From assembly GCA_042569985.1 (NCBI GenBank), contig JBHPHB010000001.1:1600-65599 (forward strand): a DNA stretch of 64,000 nucleotides, written 5' to 3'. Position 1 is the stretch's first letter, and each line of letters begins with the position of its first letter. Below the pieces are notes generated by a model, which had not been told where the DNA came from, searched no databases, and saw only the letters and a program-made list of their open reading frames with translations. The position numbers and the translations under genes are program-made. Positions 1,550 through 63,341 of this stretch are shown here, one piece after another. Source of the stretch: Spirochaetota bacterium (GTDB lineage Bacteria > Spirochaetota > UBA4802 > UBA5550).

Positions 1550-1582
1550 GTAAGTAGTATGTTCAAAAAAGGTACTATATTC

Positions 1583-1660
1583 GCCGGGTGATTACCGGCA
1601 TTTCGATACGATCCCGGTTATTGAGTGATTGCGTAGCAATCGTATCGAAATACCGGGATC
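1583..1660. other. Structured inverted-repeat element (X-Y...X'-Y' arrangement) in the mscS/VWA intergenic region
   Basis: Hairpin gccgg-tgatta-ccggc; then 13-nt atttcgatacgat (1600-1612) with its exact reverse complement atcgtatcgaaat (1639-1651); cccggt (1613-1618) with accggg (1652-1657). Arm order gives pseudoknot-like or mutually exclusive pairings. Confidence 0.4.
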
Positions 1661-1862
1661 ACAGTTCGACCCTGCTCAGTGCAGGCTCAATGACGGGCAT
1701 TTTATCGAAGCGAAAAATATTAAAAAAAACACAAAAAAATTAGAACTTTTTTCCATCCACTTTTGTCTATTCACCAAATCCTAAAGTTACAATGGGAACA
1801 TGAATGCGTGTAAGGTTTTTACACATGTTCAAAAAAAAATAAACTTAATAAGGAGAGGTGAA

Positions 1863-5173: not shown

Positions 5174-5893
5174 TTATTTTGCAAATATTCCATTCCACCA
5201 GTTGCCCCTTCGCAATACTTTTCCTTTTTTATCATAGAGAATACCTTTGCCATTTCTTTTCCCGTTTTTCCATTGGCCTATAAAGGTGGAGCCATCGGAA
5301 AAATTGAAAATACCCTCTCCCGATCTTTTTCCATTTTTCCATTGGCCTATATATTTTGTTCCCCTCGGCCATGTATAAGTCCCCTTGCCGTTGAATTTAT
5401 CATCTTTCCATTGTCCCTTATATTTTGATCCGTCTGCAAAAGTACAGTTGCCCTTTCCATTCCTTTTGCCCTTTCTCCAGTCCCCCATATACAGTGTCCC
5501 TCCGGGAAAGGAAAAAGTGCCTTTGCCATGCCTTTTGTTGTATTTAAATTGGCCAGTATATTTTGAACCGTCCGGGAATATATATGTACCGCTACCGTGC
5601 ATTTTATCATTTTTCCATTGTCCCGTGTATTTTGTTCCGGTTGGCCCGGTGGCAACTCCACTGCCATGCCTTTTTCCCTTTTTAAACTGCCCCTTGTAAA
5701 TGAATCCACTGGGAAGCATTAGGGTTCCACGGCCGTGCCTTTTACCCTTTTTAAACTGGCCCACATATTTACTTCCGTTATTTTTAATTTCGGTGCCATT
5801 GCCATTTTTACAATTTCCCCTGGTGCATTTTGCATGGGCATCTGAAAAAATGGAAAGAGAAGTAATTATAAGTAAAAGGTACAGATATTTCAT
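5174..5893 (-). CDS. MORN-repeat protein with signal peptide
   Basis: Reiterated YxGQ(F/W)KxGKRHGxGT units (e.g. YVGQFKKGKRHGRGT, YKGQFKKGKRHGSGV, YTGQWKNDKMHGSGT). The DNA repeat explains the in-repeat shadow ORFs on both strands. Confidence 0.8.
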   Translation of the reverse strand: MKYLYLLLIITSLSIFSDAHAKCTRGNCKNGNGTEIKNNGSKYVGQFKKGKRHGRGTLMLPSGFIYKGQFKKGKRHGSGVATGPTGTKYTGQWKNDKMHGSGTYIFPDGSKYTGQFKYNKRHGKGTFSFPGGTLYMGDWRKGKRNGKGNCTFADGSKYKGQWKDDKFNGKGTYTWPRGTKYIGQWKNGKRSGEGIFNFSDGSTFIGQWKNGKRNGKGILYDKKGKVLRRGNWWNGIFAK

Positions 5894-24123: not shown

Positions 24124-24699
24124 TTATCTTCTGGTCATGCTTTTGATAAAATGATCTACAATGGTTTCAATGTTATCACCATAACCTGTGGGATAATTTT
24201 CAAGCCATATTATTTCATTGTTTTCAAGGCTGATTACCCTGGCCCAGCTGACTTCTCCCCAGTCTCTTAGATCCAAAAGAATAAGGTAATTAACCTTCCA
24301 CTTGGTTTTAATCTCAGATAAGAGTTCAGCTTTGCTGATTTCGAAATTATACATGTGCAGTTTGAAAATATTATTATATGTTTTTTCCATGGAGAGCAGT
24401 GAGTTTGATGCATCACCGCTGAAGGATATTTTTTTAAGATCTGAAATGTCAAATATATCACCGAGCCTGTAAAAATCAGCGGCATTAATCGCTTTTACAT
24501 TAAAGCCCTTTGCAAGGAATTTAGCTAAAACAACATTCTTTATGTTATTTGGTGAATCAATAATTACTGCGACGCTTGATCTTGAAGGGATCGTCCTTTT
24601 GGTATATTTAACCGATTTTTTTGTACTGCAAGAAGACAAAATGAAAGTTAAAACAGTTAAAGATAATATTGTTATTCCCCATTTTTTATGTTTCAGCAT
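24124..24699 (-). CDS. Hypothetical lipoprotein
   Basis: Lipobox ILSSCSTKK. Abuts the upstream gene (stop/start adjacent). Confidence 0.5.
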   Translation of the reverse strand: MLKHKKWGITILSLTVLTFILSSCSTKKSVKYTKRTIPSRSSVAVIIDSPNNIKNVVLAKFLAKGFNVKAINAADFYRLGDIFDISDLKKISFSGDASNSLLSMEKTYNNIFKLHMYNFEISKAELLSEIKTKWKVNYLILLDLRDWGEVSWARVISLENNEIIWLENYPTGYGDNIETIVDHFIKSMTRR

Positions 24700-24785
24700 T
24701 TAACTACCTCTTACTATAATTATTTTAATAGAAGGAAACTCATATAATCTAACAAATGAATTTCCCTGTGTGAAAAATAATAGTT

Positions 24786-24822
24786 AAAACTGCTTTTGTT
24801 TTTTAATTACAAAAGCAGTTTT
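24786..24822 (-). terminator. Rho-independent terminator (14-bp perfect stem) after the SurA-like gene
   Basis: aaaactgcttttgt - 9 nt loop - acaaaagcagtttt. T-run on the minus strand follows. Confidence 0.6.
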
Positions 24823-24894
24823 AAAATATACACATAATATTATTATATAAAATTCTTTATAAAATGTCAAATAGAAAATGCAAAGCAAGTATTA

Positions 24895-25581
24895 TTATTT
24901 TTTCTTTTTGATGTCCTTTTTTTCTTTGGTTTTATTCTGTTCTTTGTTTTTATCCTTATTTTCTCTCATTTTTTTCAGGTAGTTCTTAAGGCCCTCTTTA
25001 TTTACCTTGCTTTCAGCAATTAAAGTCATCAGGTATTCATTGGATTTGAGCTTTGATTTTTGTAGAAAGATTTGCTGTTTTATTCTTCTGATTATATTTT
25101 CGTCAATGGGTACGCCTCTGAAAAGTTTTTTATTTCTTTTATAAAACTTTTCAACTTCCTCGTTTGTGACTTCAACTTTACCCTTTAATTTTTTGCCAAG
25201 ATAGTATGCCGAAACGGCCTGCATCTTTCCAATTTCCTCTGCAATTTTAAGTTCCTTTTGATCTACCGTATCATCTTGAAAAGCTTTTTTGTAAAGAAGT
25301 TTCTGTGCAATGAGTTGATCGAGGAAAGTCGTTTTAACTATATACTGTTGAACCTGGGGACTCAAAACTGACGTGTCTTCTGCAAGCTTATCAACTTCTT
25401 CATTTTTTTCAATGTTTAATAATAACTTGTTTTGGAGATAATAAAAACTCATGAACTCATCTATTGTTATTTTATCATCATCAATTTTTGCAGCCCAATC
25501 ATTACCGCTGAATTTACTGCATGAACTAAATGAAGTAATAAGAATAAAGAGAATTATTAGAAAAAGTCCTTTTGATTTCAT
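24895..25581 (-). CDS. SurA N-terminal-domain-like periplasmic chaperone lipoprotein
   Basis: Lipoprotein signal MKSKGLFLIILFILITSFSSCS if start is the internal ATG (25581). The longer ORF to 25635 is the alternative. Immediately downstream of mfd. Confidence 0.45.
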   Translation of the reverse strand: MKSKGLFLIILFILITSFSSCSKFSGNDWAAKIDDDKITIDEFMSFYYLQNKLLLNIEKNEEVDKLAEDTSVLSPQVQQYIVKTTFLDQLIAQKLLYKKAFQDDTVDQKELKIAEEIGKMQAVSAYYLGKKLKGKVEVTNEEVEKFYKRNKKLFRGVPIDENIIRRIKQQIFLQKSKLKSNEYLMTLIAESKVNKEGLKNYLKKMRENKDKNKEQNKTKEKKDIKKKK

Positions 25582-25664: not shown

Positions 25665-28600
25665 TTATTGTGATATTTGTTGCAACCACTTTTTTAGCTC
25701 AACAAGCTTTTTTTCAACATTTTTCATATTTGGCCTGAATATGAGGATTTCATTATTTTCAGGATCAACCGAAAGCCTTGGATCAATTTTTATTTGTTCC
25801 ACCAGTTTTTTAAGATCAATTTTCGATTGTTTTGAAATTTTTATTTTTATAGATTTTGAATCCTCAACAATTTCTTCGATTAGTAAAGACGATGCCAGTG
25901 CCCTTAACCTTTCCAGTTCGATCAATATTTTTACTTCCTCCGGGGGTAACCCAAACCGGTCGATTAACTCTTCAGTTAGTTTGTCCACTTCGGCTATACT
26001 CATGCAGGATTCATATCTCTTGTAAAATTCAATTTTCTGTCTTTCATCATTTATGTAATTATCGGGAATATAAAAATCTGTATTTATAAACAGGGGAGTG
26101 CGGAAAACCGTTGAGACCTGTTCTCCCTTGAGTTTTTTAATTGAATCCTCAAGCATTTGGCTGTAAAGGTCAAAGCCCACATCCATTATGCTTCCCGATT
26201 GTTCTTTGCCCAGGATGTTTCCGGCACCTCGTATTTCGAGATCCTTCATGGCTATTTTAAAACCGCTTCCCAGCTCGGAGTACTCAGATATTACCTGCAG
26301 CCTTTTCTGTGCTTCTTCGGTGAGTGCAACGTGCTTTGGGTAAAACAGATATGCATATGCCTTAATGGTTGACCTTCCCACCCTTCCTTTAAGCTGGTAC
26401 AACTGGGAAAGCCCGAATGTGTCGGCCCTGTTGATAATTATTGTATTTACATTGGGAATGTCAAGGCCCGACTCGATTATTGTAGTAGACAGGAGGAGGT
26501 CATATTTTTTGTTCATAAAGTCTATCATGATATCCTCAAGTTCATGTTCATGCATCTGTCCATGGGCTACGGCAATTGAAATTTCGGGCATAAGTTTTTC
26601 CAGCATTGCAGCATGGGCATCAATCGTCTTAACCCTGTTATGCACAAAGAAGACCTGTCCGCCCCTTTCCACCTCGTTTAGGATTGCCATTCGAAGAATA
26701 TCGGGGTTGTCTTCCATTACGTAGGTTTCTATTGACTGGCGGTTCTCAGGAGGTGTGGCAATAATGGAAAGGTCACGTATTCCAGCAAGAGACATGTGGA
26801 GAGTCCTCGGTATGGGTGTGGCGGTAAGGGTTAATACATCAACCAGTGACCTGAATATTTTCAGCTTTTCCTTATGCCTCACGCCGAATTTCTGTTCCTC
26901 GTCAATTATGAGGAGCCCCAGGTTTTTAATTGATATGTCCTTGCCCAGCAGTGCGTGGGTGCCGATGATAATATCAATTTGTCCCAGGGAGAGTTTTTCC
27001 CTGGCTTCCCTGATTTGTTTTGGGCTCCTGAACCGTGATATCATGTCAATCTCAATGGGGTAATCTGAAAATCGTTTAACAAATGTTGAAAAATGCTGCA
27101 TTGCTAAAATTGTTGTTGGTACCAGTATTGCCACCTGCTTGCCCGCCATTACAGATTTAAATGCAGCCCTTATGGCAATCTCTGTTTTGCCAAAACCCAC
27201 ATCACCGCATATTAGCCTGTCCATGGGCTTGTTTTTTTCCATGTCATCCTTAACATCTTCAACGGCGGTAATCTGGTCCGGAGTTTCCTCGTACTCAAAG
27301 AGGGTTTCGAATTCCTCCTGCCATGAAGTGTCCGGGGGGTACTGAAATCCTTTTAGGGCGCTTCTCTTTGAATATATCTGGAGGAGTTCCTTTGCTATCT
27401 CTTCTGCAGCCTCCTGCGCTTTCTTCTTAATCCTGTTCCATGCTGATTTTTTGCCAAGACAGTCTATCCTTGGTTTTTTGCCTGTCATGCCGATATATTT
27501 CTGCACCATTGTTATCTGGTCCAGCGATACATAGAGCTTATCGCTTTCGGCATATTCGATCATGAGGAAGTCTCTTTCAATACCTCCGGCGGACATCCTT
27601 TCAATTTTTTTAAATATACCTATTCCATGGTTGATATGTACAACGAAATCATCGGGTTTAAGGTCGAGAAAGGAATCAATGGGCCTGGATGTTTTTTTCT
27701 TAAACTGTTTTTTCTTTCTGTAACTTTTACCAAAGATCTCATTGTCCGAAATTATCGTAATTTTGCTGTCCTTTAGTTCGAGACCCTCTTTGTAGGGGGA
27801 AATTATAATATTAAACGGGTTGTCTTTATTGATAACCTCGAAATTACTGTCCGGTTCAAAATCGCTTAAAAGATCATATAACCTTCTTGCCTGTCCTTCG
27901 AAACCGGTAGTAACAATTACCTTCCAGTTATTTTTAAGCCTCTGTGAAATTTCTTCTCTAACAAATTTCATTTTTCCCTGGTAATTGGGAATGCTCTTCA
28001 TGTTCCATTTCAGTGATTCCGCAGACGTGGTTATTGCCTGCAGCTGAATGGACCTGTTAAGGGTTTCGTCAAAAGTATTGGTGTCCAGAAGTTCATCGGG
28101 CTTAAGGCAAAGTGTTTTGTCCTTTTTCTTTTTGTAGAGGTCTCTGAATATTTTTTCCGTCAGGTTCTTTTTAGAGATAAGTTCCTGGGTTTCTAAAAAG
28201 ATTACTCTATGCTTTTCCGGAAAGTATGACGGCAGGTTAGTATCCTCAATTATCAATGGGAATATATCTTCAATGCCCCTTATTTTATCGATCTTTCCAT
28301 CATCAATTTGATTTTCAATCTCATCGGTGAGTTCCATACCCTTTTGGGATGCTTCTTTTAGTATTTTGTATATTTTTTCCTTCTCCTTTGAAAAGAGAAT
28401 GAGTTCGCGCCTGGGATAAATGGTTATCGATTTGAGCTTTTGAATTGACACCTGGCTTCCAATATCAAATTCCCTTATTGATTCCAGGGTGTCTCCGAAG
28501 AAATCCAGCCGCACGGGATTTTCCTGCGAGGGAAGAAAGATATCTATAATTCCCCCTTTAACCGAAAAGTGGCTGAATGCTTCAACCCTGAACTCCCTAG

Positions 28601-29105
28601 TGTAGCCGTATGTTACAAGCATTTCAACCAGGTCGTCAAAGGGATAGTCGTCTTTCACGTTAAGGGTAACGCCTTTTTGGATGAAGTAACTCTTGTGGGG
28701 CAGTTTCCTTATGAGCGATTCCACTGTAGTAATGATTATCATTGGAGAACCCTCAAGCATCCTGTAAAGGGAAGTGATCCTGTGGCGCTCAACAGATTCT
28801 ATGGGTGAAACGAATTCGTAGGGCAGGGTCTCCCATGGTGGAAGTTTGCAGACCCGGCTTTCGTCAACAAGACAGGTGAGGTCTACGTAGAGTTTCTGCA
28901 TCTTCTGGGAATTTTCGGTGACTATTATTATTTGCTCTGAGCAGTGGTTATAGATTGATGCAATTATTACGGGAAAGGAGGACGGCGCAATGCCTTCAAT
29001 GAGGAGCTCGCTACCGGGGGAGGTATTAAAATATTTTATAAATTGCTTAAATTCTTCGGATGAAGAGAATTCATCTATAACAGATTTCAGTATCATAGAT
29101 GACAA
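25665..29105 (-). CDS. mfd: Transcription-repair coupling factor
   Basis: 1146 aa. Superfamily-2 helicase motifs GDVGFGKTE, DEEQKFG, LTLTATPIPRTL. UvrB-homology N-terminal region. C-terminal TRCF domain. Confidence 0.95.
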   Translation of the reverse strand: MSSMILKSVIDEFSSSEEFKQFIKYFNTSPGSELLIEGIAPSSFPVIIASIYNHCSEQIIIVTENSQKMQKLYVDLTCLVDESRVCKLPPWETLPYEFVSPIESVERHRITSLYRMLEGSPMIIITTVESLIRKLPHKSYFIQKGVTLNVKDDYPFDDLVEMLVTYGYTREFRVEAFSHFSVKGGIIDIFLPSQENPVRLDFFGDTLESIREFDIGSQVSIQKLKSITIYPRRELILFSKEKEKIYKILKEASQKGMELTDEIENQIDDGKIDKIRGIEDIFPLIIEDTNLPSYFPEKHRVIFLETQELISKKNLTEKIFRDLYKKKKDKTLCLKPDELLDTNTFDETLNRSIQLQAITTSAESLKWNMKSIPNYQGKMKFVREEISQRLKNNWKVIVTTGFEGQARRLYDLLSDFEPDSNFEVINKDNPFNIIISPYKEGLELKDSKITIISDNEIFGKSYRKKKQFKKKTSRPIDSFLDLKPDDFVVHINHGIGIFKKIERMSAGGIERDFLMIEYAESDKLYVSLDQITMVQKYIGMTGKKPRIDCLGKKSAWNRIKKKAQEAAEEIAKELLQIYSKRSALKGFQYPPDTSWQEEFETLFEYEETPDQITAVEDVKDDMEKNKPMDRLICGDVGFGKTEIAIRAAFKSVMAGKQVAILVPTTILAMQHFSTFVKRFSDYPIEIDMISRFRSPKQIREAREKLSLGQIDIIIGTHALLGKDISIKNLGLLIIDEEQKFGVRHKEKLKIFRSLVDVLTLTATPIPRTLHMSLAGIRDLSIIATPPENRQSIETYVMEDNPDILRMAILNEVERGGQVFFVHNRVKTIDAHAAMLEKLMPEISIAVAHGQMHEHELEDIMIDFMNKKYDLLLSTTIIESGLDIPNVNTIIINRADTFGLSQLYQLKGRVGRSTIKAYAYLFYPKHVALTEEAQKRLQVISEYSELGSGFKIAMKDLEIRGAGNILGKEQSGSIMDVGFDLYSQMLEDSIKKLKGEQVSTVFRTPLFINTDFYIPDNYINDERQKIEFYKRYESCMSIAEVDKLTEELIDRFGLPPEEVKILIELERLRALASSLLIEEIVEDSKSIKIKISKQSKIDLKKLVEQIKIDPRLSVDPENNEILIFRPNMKNVEKKLVELKKWLQQISQ

Positions 29106-29173
29106 TTTTACAGGATGAGTTATTCTTGCAAGTAAAATATTGGAATTGAATATATCCGGTAAATTGTGAATTT

Positions 29174-29539
29174 CTAGTTTGGAAAGATTACATCGTCAAC
29201 ATAATCGACCGACTTTTTCAAACATTCTGCGCAGAATGGCACCTTCATCTTTTTTAATTCCTTGCAGCTCACTGAAGGGGCAAAAGAAAGGAAGTACCTG
29301 GTAAAATCATCAATCTTATGGTGATGATCTGTTTTTTCAAGAATATACTTGGCGGCAAAATACATGCCGCATTCTCCTTCAGGCGCCTTTCCAAATCCCT
29401 TCTTTTTAAACTGTTTAATTGTATCATCAGTAATAAAGGGAAGGGTATCCTTAAATGCCATGGCCACGGCCTGGGCACAGTTTAATCTTTTGTTTTTATT
29501 CTCACCAAGAAAGTGTTCCTTTGCCACAACTCCAGTCAT
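29174..29539 (-). CDS. Hypothetical cysteine-containing protein
   Basis: NCAQAV...EGECGMYFAAKY...FCAECL. Resembles but does not match the C_GCAxxG_C_C family. Confidence 0.4.
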   Translation of the reverse strand: MTGVVAKEHFLGENKNKRLNCAQAVAMAFKDTLPFITDDTIKQFKKKGFGKAPEGECGMYFAAKYILEKTDHHHKIDDFTRYFLSFAPSVSCKELKKMKVPFCAECLKKSVDYVDDVIFPN

Positions 29540-29543
29540 TATA

Positions 29544-29765
29544 CTACCTCTTTATAGTTATAATTTTTAATATTAATAGTATCCATGGTATTCCATGGAA
29601 GAAAAGGTCGAACCAGTCTATGGGACGGCTCAGGGTACCTTTAAGCAGCATGTTTATCTTTTCCCATATATGGGGCGGATTAAAGGGGGCCAGTCCCAGT
29701 GTAAGGCACAGGATGATAACCAGTGACCAGTCCATTTTTCGTATAAATTCAATTATTGTATCCAT
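29544..29765 (-). CDS. Small membrane protein, hypothetical
   Basis: 73 aa with two TM-like segments. 4-nt gap to downstream gene. First gene of the operon leading to mfd. Confidence 0.4.
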   Translation of the reverse strand: MDTIIEFIRKMDWSLVIILCLTLGLAPFNPPHIWEKINMLLKGTLSRPIDWFDLFFHGIPWILLILKIITIKR

Positions 29766-29874
29766 ATCTATTTCCTCTTTTTAGACAAGATAATAAATAC
29801 GGGCGATTTGTCAATAAATAATTAAAGTATTTTATAAAAAACTTAAATAACGAGGTGTTTTCGAAAAGATGAAG

Positions 29875-29992
29875 TTACTCTGAGCAATATAAATGCTGCT
29901 CAAAATTTTGCTCAGAGTAATTATTTTTTAAGATTTATGGCCATATTATTGACAGCAGAAATATAATAATTATTTTAGATTGCTCAGAGTAA
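29875..29992. promoter_or_regulatory. Candidate operator region: 13-mer TTGCTCAGAGTAA present three times in a divergent promoter region
   Basis: ttactctgagcaa (29875-29887, inverted), ttgctcagagtaa (29908-29920), ttgctcagagtaa (29980-29992). ttgaca at 29949-29954. Third copy 30 nt upstream of the aminotransferase start. Confidence 0.4.
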
Positions 29993-30021
29993 TAAAATAG
30001 TATCATTTACAGGTATATTTC

Positions 30022-30933
30022 ATGAAAGCATGGTTAAACGGTAAGTTTATCAAATGGGACAGGGTAAAGGTCAGCCTCCTTACGCACAGTTTTGGAAGGG
30101 GCTCAGCCCTCTTCGAGGTCCTTGATATAGTGTCCAACGAAAACGGTACAGCCCTTTTCGGTATTGATGAACATATAGACAGGCTCTTTAATTCTGCACG
30201 GCTCATGTATATGAAACTCCCCATGACAAAGGAAGAAATAATCCGTGCCTGCATAGACACTGTGAAAAAGAATAAAACCAGGGTGGGCATGTTAAAGCTA
30301 TATGCATATTATTCCGGTATTGAACTCACATCAATTCCCAACGATACCACCATTGATATTGCTATATTCACAATAGACTTTAATAAGATGCATCTGGACC
30401 TGGAGGAATTATCAAAACCCGTGGACGTGCTCATATCCTCCTATAGAAAATACCATCCCCAGAGCGTGCCTGTACAGGCCAAGGTATCGGGCAACTATGT
30501 TAATCCATACCTGTCACTTATGGAGGGAAAGGAAAAGGGGTTAGACAATGTTATAACACTGGACCTTTCGGGAAATATTGCAGAAGGCGCAACCTCCAGC
30601 GCTTTTTTTGTAAAGGATGGAAAGATTAAGGTCCCCGCCCTTGATAATGTACTGAGCGGTATTACAAGGATGGCCGTTATTGAGGCTGCAAAGGATATTG
30701 GAATTGAAGTTGAAATTACTGATATTCCCCATGAAGAGGTGGGTGAATTTGAAGAGGCCTTTTATTCCGGCAGCGTTCAGCATGTTCAGCCCATCAGGTC
30801 AATAGATGGTAAAACACTTTCAGACTGCTGCCCCGGCCCTGTTACCGAAAATGTCATGGGGGCAATGAAGGATGTTTATGAAGGTAAAAACAGCATGTTA
30901 AACAGATGGCTCACCTATATTAAGGGTGTTTAA
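30022..30933 (+). CDS. Fold-type IV PLP aminotransferase (branched-chain / D-amino-acid aminotransferase family)
   Basis: ~300 aa with class IV aminotransferase architecture (GIDEHIDRLFNSARLM...; EGATSSAFFVKDGKIKVPALDNVLSGITR). BCAT, DAAT or ADC lyase cannot be distinguished. Confidence 0.7.
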   Translation: MKAWLNGKFIKWDRVKVSLLTHSFGRGSALFEVLDIVSNENGTALFGIDEHIDRLFNSARLMYMKLPMTKEEIIRACIDTVKKNKTRVGMLKLYAYYSGIELTSIPNDTTIDIAIFTIDFNKMHLDLEELSKPVDVLISSYRKYHPQSVPVQAKVSGNYVNPYLSLMEGKEKGLDNVITLDLSGNIAEGATSSAFFVKDGKIKVPALDNVLSGITRMAVIEAAKDIGIEVEITDIPHEEVGEFEEAFYSGSVQHVQPIRSIDGKTLSDCCPGPVTENVMGAMKDVYEGKNSMLNRWLTYIKGV

Positions 30934-31445
30934 GAAAAGGCCTTTTCAATTTCAGGCACAAGCTTAACAGCCTCAGACGCTATTTCTTCAATGCTTTTTT
31001 TAACGCGTTTTCCCTTTACCCTTCTCATTGTCGTTATCTGTAAGCAAAGCCCGGGCCTCCCACCGGAATTTTTTATATTACCCAGTGCCCTATCGCTCCA
31101 GCGATCACTATCGTGTCCCAACACGGTAGTTAAAAATATTACATTTTTGCTATCAAATTGGTTGAGTGACAGAAAAGCACGGATAGCCATGCTTAAAGCA
31201 TTACCCCATATGGGTGAGGCTATGATAATATTGCCGTATGCTGACATGTCGGGGCGCTCGGGCTCTATGGATGTTTTAATGTTGAATAAACCTGCCAGGA
31301 CTGCACAGAAGAACCCCCATTTGCCTGCCCTGTTTTTGAGGTCCTTTATTTCAACTATATCAGCACCCAGCTTTTTCCCAAGTGCCTCACATGCGGCTTT
31401 TGTTTTGCCCGTGCGTGAATAATACAGTATTAGCGTCTTTGACAT
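30930..31445 (-). CDS. Flavodoxin-like protein
   Basis: MSKTLILYYSRTGKTKAACEALGKKLGADI typical flavodoxin FMN-binding N-terminus. 171 aa. Confidence 0.6.
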   Translation of the reverse strand: MSKTLILYYSRTGKTKAACEALGKKLGADIVEIKDLKNRAGKWGFFCAVLAGLFNIKTSIEPERPDMSAYGNIIIASPIWGNALSMAIRAFLSLNQFDSKNVIFLTTVLGHDSDRWSDRALGNIKNSGGRPGLCLQITTMRRVKGKRVKKSIEEIASEAVKLVPEIEKAFS

Positions 31446-31519
31446 TTTTATCTCCCTGCTAAAAGGTAAAATTAAAAGGTTTTCACGAAGCTCCGTGTGA
31501 AATTATTTGTTTTTTTGTT

Positions 31520-32899
31520 CTAATTAAAGTCCTTTCTTTTCTTCATATAGTCCCTGGTCATTTTTGTTACTATACCCGACAGGGCGATAACCCCTATGAG
31601 GTTGGGCAGGGCCATTAGCGCATTTGCGATATCACAGAGCCCCCAGACGGTCTTAAGTTCAAGAATTGCACCGATTGGAATAAGTACGACAAAAATAATT
31701 CTATAGTAAATCACTGCCTTTTGGCCAATTAAAAATTCTGTACTGCGGTCTCCATAGTATGACCATCCGATGAGCGTGGTAAAAGCAAATACGGCAAGGC
31801 CGATTGAAACGACATACCTGCCCGCATAGGGGAGGGTCGAGGTAAATGATGCCGAAGATAAAGTCGCTCCGTCCAGGCCGGTTTCCCACTTGCCCGATAT
31901 TATTATCACCAGTGCTGTCATTGTGCATATTACGATCGTATCTATAAAGGGGCCAAGCATTGCAACAAGGCCTTCCCTTACGGGTTCACTGGTCTTGGCC
32001 GGGGCGTGTGCAATGGCAGCGCTGCCCAGGCCGGACTCATTTGAAAATAGTCCCCGGGCAACGCCAAAGCGCATTACCGCCCAAACTGTGGCTCCTGCAA
32101 ATCCGCCGGAAGCGCTTTTTGGAACATTATTAAAGGCATAATAAAAAATCTTTTTAAATGCCGGTATGATGCCATCATAGTTTAAAAATAATACAATAAG
32201 GGCTGCAATAACATAGAGTATCGCCATGAGGGGGACAAGCCTTGATGTTACATTGGCAATTCTTCGTATTCCCCCGATAATAACAAGGCCCACAAGAAGG
32301 GCCACAAAAATCCCCGTGCCCAGTTTATTGATACTGAACACATCGTGGAGCGGATTAGCCATGGAATTTGCCTGTGCAAGGTTACCAATGCCAAAGGAAG
32401 CGATTACCGTGAAAATGGCAAAGAGGACACCGAGCCATTTTTTTTTCAGCCCCAGTGCCAGGTAATATGCCGGCCCTCCCGATACAACACCTTCGTCATT
32501 AATTTTCCTGAATTTTTGCGCCAGGAGGCAGCTGTGATATTTAATGGACATGCCCAAAAGGGCGGTAACCCACATCCAGAAAACAGCACCTGGACCACCG
32601 GCAGCTATTGCTGTTGCCACTCCTGCTATATTTCCCGTACCGATTGTGGCCGAAAGGGCAGTGCTGAGAGACTGGAAATGTGTTGTTTCTCCTTTTTCGC
32701 CGGGCTGGTCATATTTGCCCGTAATTAATCCCCATCCATGGGCAAAGCCCCTGAACTGAATGCCCCTGCTTCGGAGTGTCAGGAATACTCCCGTTCCCAG
32801 CAGTGGAATAATCAGGGGAAGCCCCCACATGAAGTTGCTTATTGCCTGTATGCCCTGGCTTATTTCGCTTAGAATTGGTTGTATTGATTGGTAGTTCAT
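31520..32899 (-). CDS. Sodium:alanine (alanine/glycine:cation) symporter, AGCS family
   Basis: AGCS signature region GTGNIAGVATAIAAGGPGAVFWMW. ~460 aa polytopic membrane protein. Confidence 0.85.
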   Translation of the reverse strand: MNYQSIQPILSEISQGIQAISNFMWGLPLIIPLLGTGVFLTLRSRGIQFRGFAHGWGLITGKYDQPGEKGETTHFQSLSTALSATIGTGNIAGVATAIAAGGPGAVFWMWVTALLGMSIKYHSCLLAQKFRKINDEGVVSGGPAYYLALGLKKKWLGVLFAIFTVIASFGIGNLAQANSMANPLHDVFSINKLGTGIFVALLVGLVIIGGIRRIANVTSRLVPLMAILYVIAALIVLFLNYDGIIPAFKKIFYYAFNNVPKSASGGFAGATVWAVMRFGVARGLFSNESGLGSAAIAHAPAKTSEPVREGLVAMLGPFIDTIVICTMTALVIIISGKWETGLDGATLSSASFTSTLPYAGRYVVSIGLAVFAFTTLIGWSYYGDRSTEFLIGQKAVIYYRIIFVVLIPIGAILELKTVWGLCDIANALMALPNLIGVIALSGIVTKMTRDYMKKRKDFN

Positions 32900-32982
32900 A
32901 ATATGTCCTTTCTATTTCAAATAATTTTTCAAGAAAATATGTCAAGCTTTTATCATTATTTTTAATACATGAATAAAAAAAC

Positions 32983-33185
32983 AAGCCCCCCATAACCCTG
33001 GCGCCATGGCCGCTCTCGGCCAACCACATGACAGGATGTCATGATTGTTGGTTGCCATTAAGACATCCATGCCTGTTAGATGATGTTGATGGCCCTTCGG
33101 GAAGCTTAGCCAGAGCGCCCTGAGCGAAGCGAAGAAGAGCCCTTGGGGTAGATGTGCCGAAAAGCGTTTATCCGGAGGGGGGCTT
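32983..33185. ncRNA. GC-rich ~200 nt structured element (candidate cis-regulatory RNA or small RNA) upstream of the AGCS symporter
   Basis: Strong local GC enrichment in an AT-rich genome. Termini aagcccccc (32983-32991) and ggggggctt (33177-33185) are complementary. Internal perfect hairpin catgaca-gga-tgtcatg nested in ccaac/gttgg. UUCG-type ccttcggg. A7 run at 32975-32981 (U-run if transcribed on the minus strand toward the symporter). Minus-strand ORFs here are probably spurious. Confidence 0.35.
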
Positions 33186-33319
33186 AAAATATTTTGATAT
33201 ATTGGATGCCAAACCTGCATTATCATATGCATTGATGAAGTTATTGGATAAAATTTGAGTTTTTTCTTAATTATTTTATTGACTATAATTTAAGCTGCAA
33301 ATAGCTTAAGGAGGATTCG

Positions 33320-34765
33320 GTGAAAAAAATGAAACTGCAAAACAAGAGTAAAATGAAAAAAACAGTTATAACATATGGAATGGTATTATTATTTATCCTG
33401 GTTTTCAGCTCCAATGCGTCTGCTGTTTTTGTAAAGGGATTCAGGGTAGTGGGTAAAACGGTTGATATTGACCTTAGCCATATTATTGCTACTGAGAAAC
33501 AGGAGATGTCCAGGGAAAAGATTAAATCCATAGGAAAATCAATTAAAAAGGAATACCACAAACTGGGGTATAAGGCCTGCTATATTAAAAAAATTATAAT
33601 AGGGAAGGACGGATTTATTGAAATCTACCTGCATGAATCTAAAATAATGGGGATTATGGTAAGTGGTGTGGAGGAGAGCAAGTGCAGGGAAATTGAAGCA
33701 TTTCTTTTACCTGTCTCCGGAGAGATATTTAATGTGAATACATTAAACAAGCGAACTGAAATGGCAAAGAGGATATTTAATTTAGGCAGGATCAGGCTAT
33801 CACCAAAAAGAATTGAGGGAGACCATATATTTATTGCAGTTACGGTGAAAAAAAAGGAGGGTGAGTTTTACGGGCAGGTGGCATGGGATATGGCTTACGG
33901 AATTTCTCCGCTCATTGGTTATTATCATCCCTTTGAGAAAACCGCACTTGACATATCAGTATTAGCGGGATTCACAAATGAGGATTTCAGAAGGATAGAG
34001 GGCAGTGTTAAGTTTTTTTTATTTTCTGAAAAGAACCAATCAGCTTTCTATTTTGGAGGCAGGTCGGGAATGATAGTAGACAGGTGGGAAGTTTTTCAGA
34101 TAGATTACGAAACTGTTTTTGGCACTCCCGTAACAGGCTTTTTATACAGGTATTGGCTGTTCAGTTTAGATTTCAATTTCTCCGAAAGAATCATGAAGAT
34201 AAAGGACTATCCGAATTTTGATGACCTAATCTACGATTCAAGGTTAAGTATAGATTTACTGTTAAGTAATAATGATATGGTCATTGATAAAAGAAGGGTA
34301 TGGAATGTTTTATTTAATATGTCCGGGGGGTGGGATAATCTTAATGATTTTCTTTATTTTATAACTTCCATAGAAGCAAAGAAGCCATTATTCCCCTTTC
34401 AGTGGTTACGGGCTATTCCAAAATTTAATCTTTTTTATACCACATCCAATAAAAGATTATTCTGGAGTTACGTATATGATTTTGACCTCATTGGCTTTTT
34501 TGATGATTTAACGGCAACGAGATTCAAAATTGTATTTGGATTGGATCTGGAGTTTGAGATACTTAATGATCAATTATATATTGGGCCTCTCATTAATTCA
34601 GGATATTTTATTGATGAAAGCGATAAATGGACTTTCAAAACAGGCACGGGTATAAGAGGCCTGGTTAAAATATCAAATTTAATGCTCATCATCTCTTATT
34701 CCTGGGACATAACAGGTCACCCGGAGAATGGCGGTGTTTTGTTTATGGTTGAAGGAAAGTTTTAG
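33320..34765 (+). CDS. Omp85/ShlB-like outer membrane protein (POTRA-like region plus beta-barrel), hypothetical
   Basis: GTG start with aaggagg RBS. Signal peptide. C-terminal aromatic-rich beta-strand pattern ending VEGKF. No two-partner secretion cargo nearby. Confidence 0.4.
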   Translation: MKKMKLQNKSKMKKTVITYGMVLLFILVFSSNASAVFVKGFRVVGKTVDIDLSHIIATEKQEMSREKIKSIGKSIKKEYHKLGYKACYIKKIIIGKDGFIEIYLHESKIMGIMVSGVEESKCREIEAFLLPVSGEIFNVNTLNKRTEMAKRIFNLGRIRLSPKRIEGDHIFIAVTVKKKEGEFYGQVAWDMAYGISPLIGYYHPFEKTALDISVLAGFTNEDFRRIEGSVKFFLFSEKNQSAFYFGGRSGMIVDRWEVFQIDYETVFGTPVTGFLYRYWLFSLDFNFSERIMKIKDYPNFDDLIYDSRLSIDLLLSNNDMVIDKRRVWNVLFNMSGGWDNLNDFLYFITSIEAKKPLFPFQWLRAIPKFNLFYTTSNKRLFWSYVYDFDLIGFFDDLTATRFKIVFGLDLEFEILNDQLYIGPLINSGYFIDESDKWTFKTGTGIRGLVKISNLMLIISYSWDITGHPENGGVLFMVEGKF

Positions 34766-40280: not shown

Positions 40281-41546
40281 TTAGTATTCTCTTTTTATAG
40301 CACAAAAATCCCCGCACATAGAGCACTGGTCATCCTCTCCTGAGGGGCTTTCTTCCCGATAAGATTTTGTCTTTTCAATATCAATTGAAAGTTCAAACAT
40401 TTTTTTCCAATTTCTTTCCTTTCTGGCACGAGACATATCATTGTCCCATTTCATTGCTTTTTTGCCAAGCTTTACTAAATCTGCCGCATGGGCTGCAATT
40501 TTTGATGCTATAACACCCTCCCTGACATCTTCAACTGTGGGTAGCCGTAAATGCTCAGCAGGGGTAACATAACATAAGAAGTCAGCACCGCTTGATGCTG
40601 CAATTGCTCCTCCGATGGCAGACGTAATATGGTCATATCCGGGTGCAATATCAGTAACCAGTGGACCCAGAACATAATACGGGGCTCCATTGCAAAGGTC
40701 TTTCTCAAGTCTAACATTGTCTGCTATCATGTCAAGCTTAACATGCCCCGGGCCTTCAATTATTGCCTGCACATCCCTGTCCCTGGCCCTTTGCGCAAGG
40801 TCTCCCAGGATTATCATTTCATGTATTTGCCCACGGTCACTTGCATCATGAATAGCTCCGGGTCTTAAACCGTCTCCAAGGCTAATGACTATGTTATATT
40901 CTCTTAAAATATCTAAAATCTTATCATAGTGTTCATACAATGGATTTTCTTTATTATTTTTTTTCATCCACTCAGCTAATATTGATCCCCCTCTGCTGGT
41001 GATCCCCACAATCCTTTCCTGGGAATTTAATGATTCGATGGCCTTTACGGTGACTCCAGAATGAATTGTCATGAAATCCACTCCGTCTTCTGCCTGCCGG
41101 ATGATCACTTTAAGGAAATCATCAATTGTCATATCAATCAATGATTTCTTTTTATTCATCATGTCCAACGCCACTTCGTACAGGGGAACCGTGCCAAGGG
41201 GGACACTTGAATTCTCAAGAATTTCTTTTCTGAAATGGGATACATTGCCCCCAATGCTGAGGTCCATAATGGTATCTGCACCCGCTTTTATTGCAACATT
41301 CAGCTTTTCGAGCTCAACATCCAGGTCAAAGAGGTCGGGAGATGATCCGATATTAGCATTAATCTTGGTGCGAAGCCCTCTGCCAATGGCGACAGGATTG
41401 ATATCTCTCCTATTGTTCCTAAATACTGCAATTTCACCCTTAGCGAAATACTCAAGAAGTTCTTCCATGGGTATCTCTTCAACTTTCGAAATATATTCAA
41501 GTTCGGTAGTAACAGTATTGTCTTTTGCTTTTTTGAAAATATTCAT
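40281..41546 (-). CDS. thiC: Phosphomethylpyrimidine synthase
   Basis: C-terminal radical-SAM-type CSMCGDFCAIK motif and conserved ThiC core. Confidence 0.9.
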   Translation of the reverse strand: MNIFKKAKDNTVTTELEYISKVEEIPMEELLEYFAKGEIAVFRNNRRDINPVAIGRGLRTKINANIGSSPDLFDLDVELEKLNVAIKAGADTIMDLSIGGNVSHFRKEILENSSVPLGTVPLYEVALDMMNKKKSLIDMTIDDFLKVIIRQAEDGVDFMTIHSGVTVKAIESLNSQERIVGITSRGGSILAEWMKKNNKENPLYEHYDKILDILREYNIVISLGDGLRPGAIHDASDRGQIHEMIILGDLAQRARDRDVQAIIEGPGHVKLDMIADNVRLEKDLCNGAPYYVLGPLVTDIAPGYDHITSAIGGAIAASSGADFLCYVTPAEHLRLPTVEDVREGVIASKIAAHAADLVKLGKKAMKWDNDMSRARKERNWKKMFELSIDIEKTKSYREESPSGEDDQCSMCGDFCAIKREY

Positions 41547-41987
41547 AATTATATTTTTACACTTATTCTCATTAGATTAATTGTGTAAACCTGGGGATTA
41601 GGAGATACTTAGGGATTGGTGGTTCATTTCTGAAAGTTGTCTATTCCTAAGACTTATTTTCCCGGGAAACTCCTTTTTTTACACAAAGTACTGGTTTCAT
41701 ATATTTTTAGTAATCAAAATAATGGAGGAAAATTATTTGGCTGTTTGATAAGTGTCAATGATAATTCATGAGATTTATTAATTTATTGAAAGAATTTAAA
41801 TAATTATCAAATTGATGCTATAATAGTATTTATTAGAAAATTGTGGAATATTTTTTTTACAAAATTCACCGGTAAGGGTGAAAATGCCACAGGAGCAGTT
41901 GATTTTTCATTGACACTGGAGATAAATTCACATTAATAATCATTATAGAAACGATGTTATAATGGAATTTCGAAAATGAAGGTGGAT

Positions 41988-63091: not shown

Positions 63092-63341
63092 TCTTGACTT
63101 TTAAATAATCTACAATATTGATGTCTAGTGTGAAACCTCTGTAAAACTGAGTGGTTATAAATAAAAAATTATTATTGCCTGGTTATGTATAGATTTTTAC
63201 AATAGTTACAGCAGTATGTTTTTATATAATAATGGGGTGTGGGGTGAAGCCCCAAGAAATACCCCCTCCGCGTGCGTCGCGGTATGCTATACAGAACAAA
63301 TTAGTTAAAATAATTGACAAATATATTTTAAGCAGGTTGTT

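Follow-up and report, generated by a model that had tools for sequence, protein, structure and literature searches.

The question raised by this locus is whether a GC-rich block in AT-rich intergenic DNA, situated upstream of a gene of the sodium:alanine symporter family (AGCS), is a riboswitch of that gene, some other structured RNA, or DNA with no function. The locus is part of a 64-kb stretch of DNA from a Spirochaetota bacterium, referred to here as the window. In other bacteria, glycine riboswitches are validated regulators of AGCS genes (PMC5829553), and a sequence-only reading of the window had proposed a candidate riboswitch or small RNA at this position, with the glycine class as the family to look for. 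The block is found to be a real, statistically unusual sequence feature. Judged from its sequence, it belongs to no known riboswitch class. The explanation that we favor, tentatively and with less than even confidence, is an independent gene for a structured small RNA restricted to this lineage, with a terminal helix and a U7 run that end the transcript upstream of AGCS.

Structure of the element

The element occupies the 420-nt gap that separates the divergently transcribed AGCS and 481-aa genes, both of which are transcribed away from it (Table 1). The GC fraction is 0.53–0.56 within the block vs 0.25–0.30 in both flanks. The first and last nine bases form a perfect 9-bp inverted repeat, and the predicted ensemble gives this closing helix a pair probability of at least 0.81 on both strands. 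Thus the sequence-only reading was correct in describing a GC-rich block of about 200 nt with complementary ends able to close it. It was also correct in describing a 7-bp hairpin nested within ccaac/gttgg. The hairpin unit as a whole shows plus-strand pair probabilities of at least 0.86–0.99, and the triloop of the 7-bp hairpin reads GGA on the plus strand and UCC on the minus strand. The plus-strand long-range helices (33000–33119) enclose both hairpins, resulting in a three-way junction. A UUCG-type tetraloop had been described as well. The CTTCGG sequence is present, but on the plus strand only and with a stem of just 2–3 bp. A riboswitch reading needs the minus strand.

Table 1. Features of the GC-rich block and of its surroundings (positions in the window)
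Feature	Position	Strand	Remarks
GC-rich structured block	32983–33185		203 nt, 56% GC
Closing helix, left arm AAGCCCCCC	32983–32991		pairs with 33177–33185
Closing helix, right arm GGGGGGCTT	33177–33185		pairs with 32983–32991
Perfect 7-bp hairpin CATGACA-GGA-TGTCATG	33027–33043		inside GCCAAC/GTTGGT
GCCAAC/GTTGGT helix around the 7-bp hairpin	33019–33024 / 33047–33052		whole unit 33019–33052
Second hairpin arm GCCATTA/TGATGGC	33054–33093	+	G-U pair possible on plus strand only
Long-range helix GGCGC/GCGCC	33000–33004 / 33115–33119	+	
Long-range helix TGGC/GCCA	33007–33010 / 33109–33112	+	
Long-range helix CTCG/CGGG	33015–33018 / 33098–33101	+	
10-bp hairpin GGGTAGATGT/GCGTTTATCC	33146–33173	+ only	4 G-U pairs, pair probability at least 0.99
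CTTCGG	~33096–33101	+	
U7 run (A7 on plus strand)	32975–32981	-	1 nt past closing helix
AGCS (sodium:alanine symporter family), left neighbor	31520–32899	-	PF01235, E = 8e-140
481-aa hypothetical secreted protein ACFL20_00170, right neighbor	33320–34765	+	no Pfam family
96-aa open reading frame spanning the element	32942–33232	-	judged spurious
TTGACA box (context CTTGACA)	32940–32945	-	46 nt upstream of AGCS ATG

The plus strand of the element folds with −85.7 kcal/mol (z = −4.2), and none of 200 shuffled sequences folds as well. The minus strand gives −78.8 kcal/mol (z = −2.55). When the minimum free energy (MFE) is regressed on GC content over ~3,200 window-strands of the 64 kb, the plus-strand element shows a residual z of −3.72 and is the joint most extreme in the window. 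The parts taken one by one are less striking. GC-rich 9-bp inverted repeats spaced 100–300 nt apart occur 3 times in the 64 kb vs 1.5 expected, and perfect 7-bp hairpins occur 55 times vs 40 expected. The single features of the element are ordinary; the whole fold is more than chance. Two further intergenic stretches of the window, 1575–1712 (plus strand) and 24690–24900 (minus strand), fold as unusually, thus a z of about −4 is notable here yet not unique.

The first of these two stretches is a second GC-rich intergenic fold (1583–1710; −52.7 kcal/mol, z = −4.44). It carries a perfect 13-bp inverted repeat, ATTTCGATACGAT / ATCGTATCGAAAT, around a CCCGGT/ACCGGG helix, and lowering the Rfam threshold to E ≤ 10 still gives it no family match. 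The second is an AT-rich intergenic region (20% GC, z = −4.25) in which a perfect hairpin of 16 bp, AAAACTGCTTTTGT...ACAAAAGCAGTTTT, is accompanied by another long hairpin; the region is terminator-like and possibly bidirectional. A small GC-rich patch, GGGGTGTGGGGTGAAGCCCCAAGAAATACCCCCTCCGCGTGCGTCGCGG, is also found in AT-rich intergenic DNA near the window end (63230–63290).

Known RNA families

A search of the whole window with the 4,227 models of Rfam 15 shows no glycine riboswitch (RF00504) and no other family at gathering score. At E ≤ 10 and with lax filters, both strands of a 501-nt and of a 231-nt stretch yield only noise, consisting of snoRNA/miRNA-type matches with E > 0.19. The glycine-riboswitch proposal therefore finds no covariance-model match on either strand, nor does it find one in related loci: a glycine riboswitch is present in 0 of the 14 related AGCS loci scanned, and their leaders show no riboswitch of any kind. 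One riboswitch, of the c-di-GMP-I class (72 bits), was seen in a Desulfatiglandales MAG (locus L001, positions 1571–1662, minus strand) ~2.4 kb from the AGCS homologue; it has no bearing on the element.

That the element is a divergent member of RF00504 is vanishingly improbable. The downstream gene family is the same, and the minus-strand strings CUCUGG, CCGAAGG and CAGGCA recall the core of the glycine aptamer, but the covariance model gives these strings no backing even under the lax settings. On inspection the element lacks an AGAG junction, a P2/P3 arrangement and any tandem or ghost aptamer. No conserved architecture is seen, and the element is missing from AGCS orthologues.

Several other RNAs were considered and rejected. 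The element resembles 6S, 4.5S/SRP, RNase P and Y-like RNAs in its length of ~200 nt, its GC-rich composition, its ends paired by a G/C helix and its independent intergenic site, but none of their covariance models matches it. For 6S RNA, the best rod-like fold is −65.3/−65.0 kcal/mol vs an MFE of −84.9/−77.2, and no match to RF00013 or related models is found; forcing the rod costs 12–20 kcal/mol and yields no central bubble. Readings as SRP domain IV or as an RNase P core fail on inspection, and the domain IV consensus is absent from the element. The high-affinity CsrA/RsmA hairpin is ACA-GGA-UGU, and the SELEX consensus is RUACARGGAUGU. The plus-strand 7-bp hairpin of the element likewise has a GGA loop closed by ACA/UGU. 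Unlike the CsrB/RsmZ-type sponges with their many GGA motifs, only this one hairpin shows GGA in the loop on inspection, and the three GGA present in the 203 nt of the plus strand are about the chance number by our own estimate. Retron, bridge-RNA and omega-RNA readings are rejected since no reverse transcriptase, IS110 recombinase or IscB/TnpB is encoded within ~13 kb, where the neighbors are housekeeping or hypothetical genes.

Orthologous loci and synteny

An nhmmer search with the element over 80 GTDB loci of AGCS relatives (40–58% identity) shows nothing alignable. The seven closest AGCS orthologues (70–75% identity), obtained from a large protein collection and taken with their flanks, have no element, no GC island and no nhmmer match upstream. 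Their upstream intergenic regions are AT-rich, with lengths of 13, 122, 280, 470, 53, 159 and 39 nt, and synteny around these orthologues is not conserved. The proposal of a cis-regulatory element in the AGCS leader is thus unsupported, because orthologous upstream regions contain no such element, an outcome that the sequence-only reading had itself named as refuting.

The 481-aa protein has a single homologue, with 38% identity, among 5.8 billion protein clusters. The 21-kb locus of this homologue (GCA_009885955.1; here L088) encodes a 465-aa counterpart and is syntenic with the window to the right, where 289-aa, PilZ, PyrG, GAF-SpoIIE, WecG and ThiC genes are shared. The segment from mfd to the 481/465-aa gene (window 25665–33319 vs L088 1–10000) has an entirely different gene content. 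It consists of C_GCAxxG, class-IV aminotransferase, flavodoxin and AGCS genes here, and of HEPN, MFS, PMT_2, LPG synthase and LolA-like genes in the relative. The element lies at the right-hand end of this variable stretch, a position held by the LolA-like gene in the relative. A remnant of that gene was considered as a source of the block, but tblastn was negative. Neither a homologue of the element nor a similar GC island is present in the relative's locus. Public data contain hardly any members of this lineage, so that covariation analysis is impossible with the data now available.

Two side observations concern genes of these segments. Three copies of TTGCTCAGAGTAAT are found in window 29868–30019, just upstream of the class-IV aminotransferase gene (30022–30933). 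Two are direct (29908, 29980) and one is inverted (~29869–29886), and the set resembles the operators of a regulator. The thiC gene (40281–41546, minus strand), a classic TPP-riboswitch target, has an upstream intergenic region of 429 nt (41547–41975) in which no TPP riboswitch is found at gathering score or at E ≤ 10. The thiC of the syntenic relative (L088 17092–18518) also shows none at gathering score.

Coding potential

The sequence-only reading had regarded the minus-strand open reading frames of the region as likely spurious, and the present data agree. The 96-aa open reading frame that spans the element shows no Shine-Dalgarno sequence on inspection and no Pfam match. Only two marginal matches (E ~6e-4; P0123 and P0124) were obtained for it in 1.84 billion representatives, and P0124, the one of the two that was inspected, is a translated tandem repeat. 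A Pfam scan of five of the six reading frames of the element gave no match; the sixth frame has eight stops in 83 codons. With no Pfam domain and only these two marginal matches, a protein-coding gene or gene remnant was rejected. Elsewhere in the window, at 5234–5762, repeats with a period of 69 nt are present in up to 7 copies with 62–89% identity; they probably lie in coding DNA and encode a protein motif of 23 residues that is repeated.

Search for further copies

There is no second copy of the element within the 64-kb window. A blastn search of plasmid and phage collections gave only chance matches of 23–44 nt. A search with the bare ends and a gap gave 12 viral-contig matches, all with unrelated interiors and near the chance number by our own rough estimate. 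In JGI metagenome contigs the two 14-nt ends together gave no matches. The 17-nt hairpin is found at 114 JGI metagenome loci, none of which aligns beyond the seed (best E = 0.16).

The element resembles MITEs, Correia/NEMIS and ERIC elements in its size, its AT-rich intergenic site, its terminal inverted repeat and its strong fold. The inverted repeat is perfect and situated at the exact ends, but with 9 bp it is short for a MITE. The flanking sequences, AAAAAAAC on the left and AAAATATT on the right, contain no direct repeat and thus no target-site duplication. In contrast to these repeat families, a single copy was found, that of the 64-kb window, with none in JGI metagenomes, plasmids or phages. 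The interior is non-palindromic (best rod-like fold −65 vs MFE −85 kcal/mol), and no transposase, reverse transcriptase or integrase is encoded within ~13 kb.

Strand and transcription signals

The predicted plus-strand ensemble is the better defined, with 54 pairs of p > 0.7 vs 33 on the minus strand and an ensemble diversity of 25.6 vs 61.9. Several plus-strand helices use G-U pairs that turn into A-C mismatches on the minus strand. The sole transcription signal above chance is found on the minus strand, where the closing helix is followed by one base and then by the U7 run, also seen in the sequence-only reading. Based on the density of such runs in the intergenic DNA of the window, the chance of a T run of at least 7 within 0–2 nt of the closing helix is ~0.011. 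This arrangement suggests termination there. As an intrinsic terminator it is non-canonical because the stem encloses 185 nt, and a terminator scan with a loop rule of 3–8 does not call it. Nothing resembling a terminator follows the element on the plus strand. Consensus promoter matches number 2 vs 2.9 expected, and neither strand stands out. The strand evidence thus conflicts: the U7 run favors the minus strand and fold quality favors the plus strand.

The CTTGACA box is situated between the U7 run of the element and the AGCS start codon. A CTTGACA(G) box is also found upstream of AGCS in several orthologue loci, at −43, −93, −222 and −67, in differing genomic contexts. Positions of the box in these loci include L001 ~3934, L083 ~3958, L085 ~3908 and L217 ~1279. 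No consensus −10 accompanies the box, and a sigma-70 scan of the window and of the orthologues calls none of these boxes a full promoter. The box may represent the −35 of an AGCS promoter, shared among these loci, or a site for a regulator. Since it recurs and lies downstream of the element, AGCS may start its own transcript after the element, although the box is suggestive only of such a separate start.

On the other side of the element, inspection shows a perfect TATAAT at 33285–33290, and the 481-aa gene may therefore have its own promoter. A perfect palindrome, TTAAGCT-N6-AGCTTAA (33290–33309), overlaps this TATAAT and abuts the AAGGAGG ribosome-binding site of the 481-aa gene. The palindrome may act as an operator or, folded into a hairpin, mask translation.

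Discussion

The small RNA gene that we tentatively favor would be situated between the divergent AGCS and 481-aa genes and would give an RNA of ~205–290 nt. The 9–10-bp G/C helix would clamp its 5′ and 3′ ends together, a design shared by many stable bacterial RNAs. Read on the minus strand, this closing helix and the U7 run would stop the transcript and so insulate the promoter region of AGCS, which lies just downstream. The interior would form a multi-branched core of local hairpins, one of which offers the GGA/UCC triloop, and this core may carry out the function of the RNA or bind a protein. That 56% GC persists in intergenic DNA of 25% GC may be read as selection for structure. Transcription, strand and function of such an RNA are what we infer here.

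Several observations argue for this small RNA. The sharp edges of the GC island coincide exactly with the inverted repeat, the plus-strand fold is exceptionally stable, tied for most extreme after GC correction, with a well-defined ensemble, and the U7 run on the minus strand is placed as chance would rarely place it. The open reading frame and Pfam searches give no coding signal, no mobile-element or partner genes are found within ~13 kb, and there is neither a terminal-repeat family in metagenomes nor a second copy in the window. The CTTGACA box suggests that the AGCS transcript is a separate one. In surveys of GC-rich intergenic regions (GC-IGRs), structured ncRNAs cluster in the same sector of length and GC content (Stav et al. 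2019, PMC6429828). Against the small RNA stands the lack of a homologue in any collection searched, so that neither covariation nor selection is in evidence. The better fold is on the strand opposite to that of the U7 run, promoter matches are at the chance level, a helix around a 185-nt insert is an unusual terminator, and two other intergenic stretches of the window fold as unusually.

On the main rival reading, the block may instead be non-functional DNA, i.e. a recently acquired fragment or a decayed MITE-like element with 9-bp terminal inverted repeats, situated at a synteny breakpoint and not yet eroded by AT-biased mutation. We regard this as rather unlikely. The terminal repeat, the size of ~200 bp, the AT-rich target and a GC content unlike that of the surrounding intergenic DNA all agree with it. 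The element is situated exactly where gene content differs from that of the only syntenic relative (mfd to the 481-aa gene), the absence of homologues is expected of junk, and GC-rich 9-bp inverted repeats are not rare in the window. Such an origin fits poorly with a repeat of just 9 bp without a visible target-site duplication, a non-palindromic interior, a single copy in 64 kb, no metagenome match to both ends, viral-contig matches that are unrelated, no transposase or integrase nearby, no protein similarity for the frames of the element, and a U7 run improbably placed by chance. A plus-strand RNA, either a long structured 5′-UTR element of the 481-aa gene or an sRNA divergent from the AGCS promoter region, is decidedly unlikely. 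It would account for the stronger and much better defined fold of that strand and for helices that rely on G-U pairs, including the 10-bp hairpin with four of them. Inspection also shows TTCAAG-17-TATCAT at ~32929–32957, roughly 18 nt upstream of the element, but this promoter match is 8/12 and under the scan threshold. The plus strand has no terminator-like signal past the element, the TATAAT at 33285–33290 suggests a separate promoter for the 481-aa gene, and upstream of the orthologous gene the relative has the LolA-like gene and an AT-rich intergenic region that lacks the element.

A new orphan riboswitch or attenuator class in the AGCS leader is quite improbable. Transcription of the minus strand would end at the closing helix and U7 run unless a ligand made the RNA refold and so let the polymerase read through. 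Orientation, the place upstream of a gene family regulated by glycine riboswitches elsewhere and the U7 run directly past the closing helix are consistent with this, as is the diffuse minus-strand ensemble. On inspection, GGCGCTCTGGC has two mutually exclusive pairing partners downstream, GCCGAGAGCG and GCCATGGCGCC. The points on the other side are the lack of an Rfam family, the absence of the element from the seven nearest AGCS orthologues and from the 80 further AGCS loci, the lack of any leader riboswitch in the 14 related loci, and the recurring CTTGACA box between the U7 run and the ATG. Also counting against it, riboswitches are not known to be built with the aptamer's own P1 as terminator stem. 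That the element is the only sampled member of a new class for an alanine/glycine transporter, with its own closing helix and U7 run as the terminator stem and the alternative partners of GGCGCTCTGGC as the switch, is very improbable.

Among the closest known counterparts of the element are the GC-IGRs filed as "Unnamed: insufficient evidence", which are likewise long, GC-rich in an AT-rich genome and strongly folded, with no annotated gene (PMC6429828). This is a category of ignorance and not a functional family, and membership says nothing about mechanism. According to the same surveys, such homologue-less regions are filed as unnamed, ~40% of the GC-rich unknown regions are missed known genes, about a quarter resisted classification and a further class makes up roughly 20%; Thermovirga lienii alone has 31 GC-rich intergenic regions without any homologue (PMC6429828). 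Both the filing of homologue-less regions and the share of missed known genes weaken the small RNA reading. At best, the element is at present a low-confidence candidate small RNA, an unnamed candidate.

The practical value of the finding is for now a negative one, as going from an AGCS transporter to a glycine riboswitch is wrong at this locus. If the element is transcribed and functional, it would add a new structured RNA to those known, from a very poorly sampled Spirochaetota lineage, and would show once more that unknown RNAs can still be recognized as GC-rich islands in AT-rich intergenic DNA.
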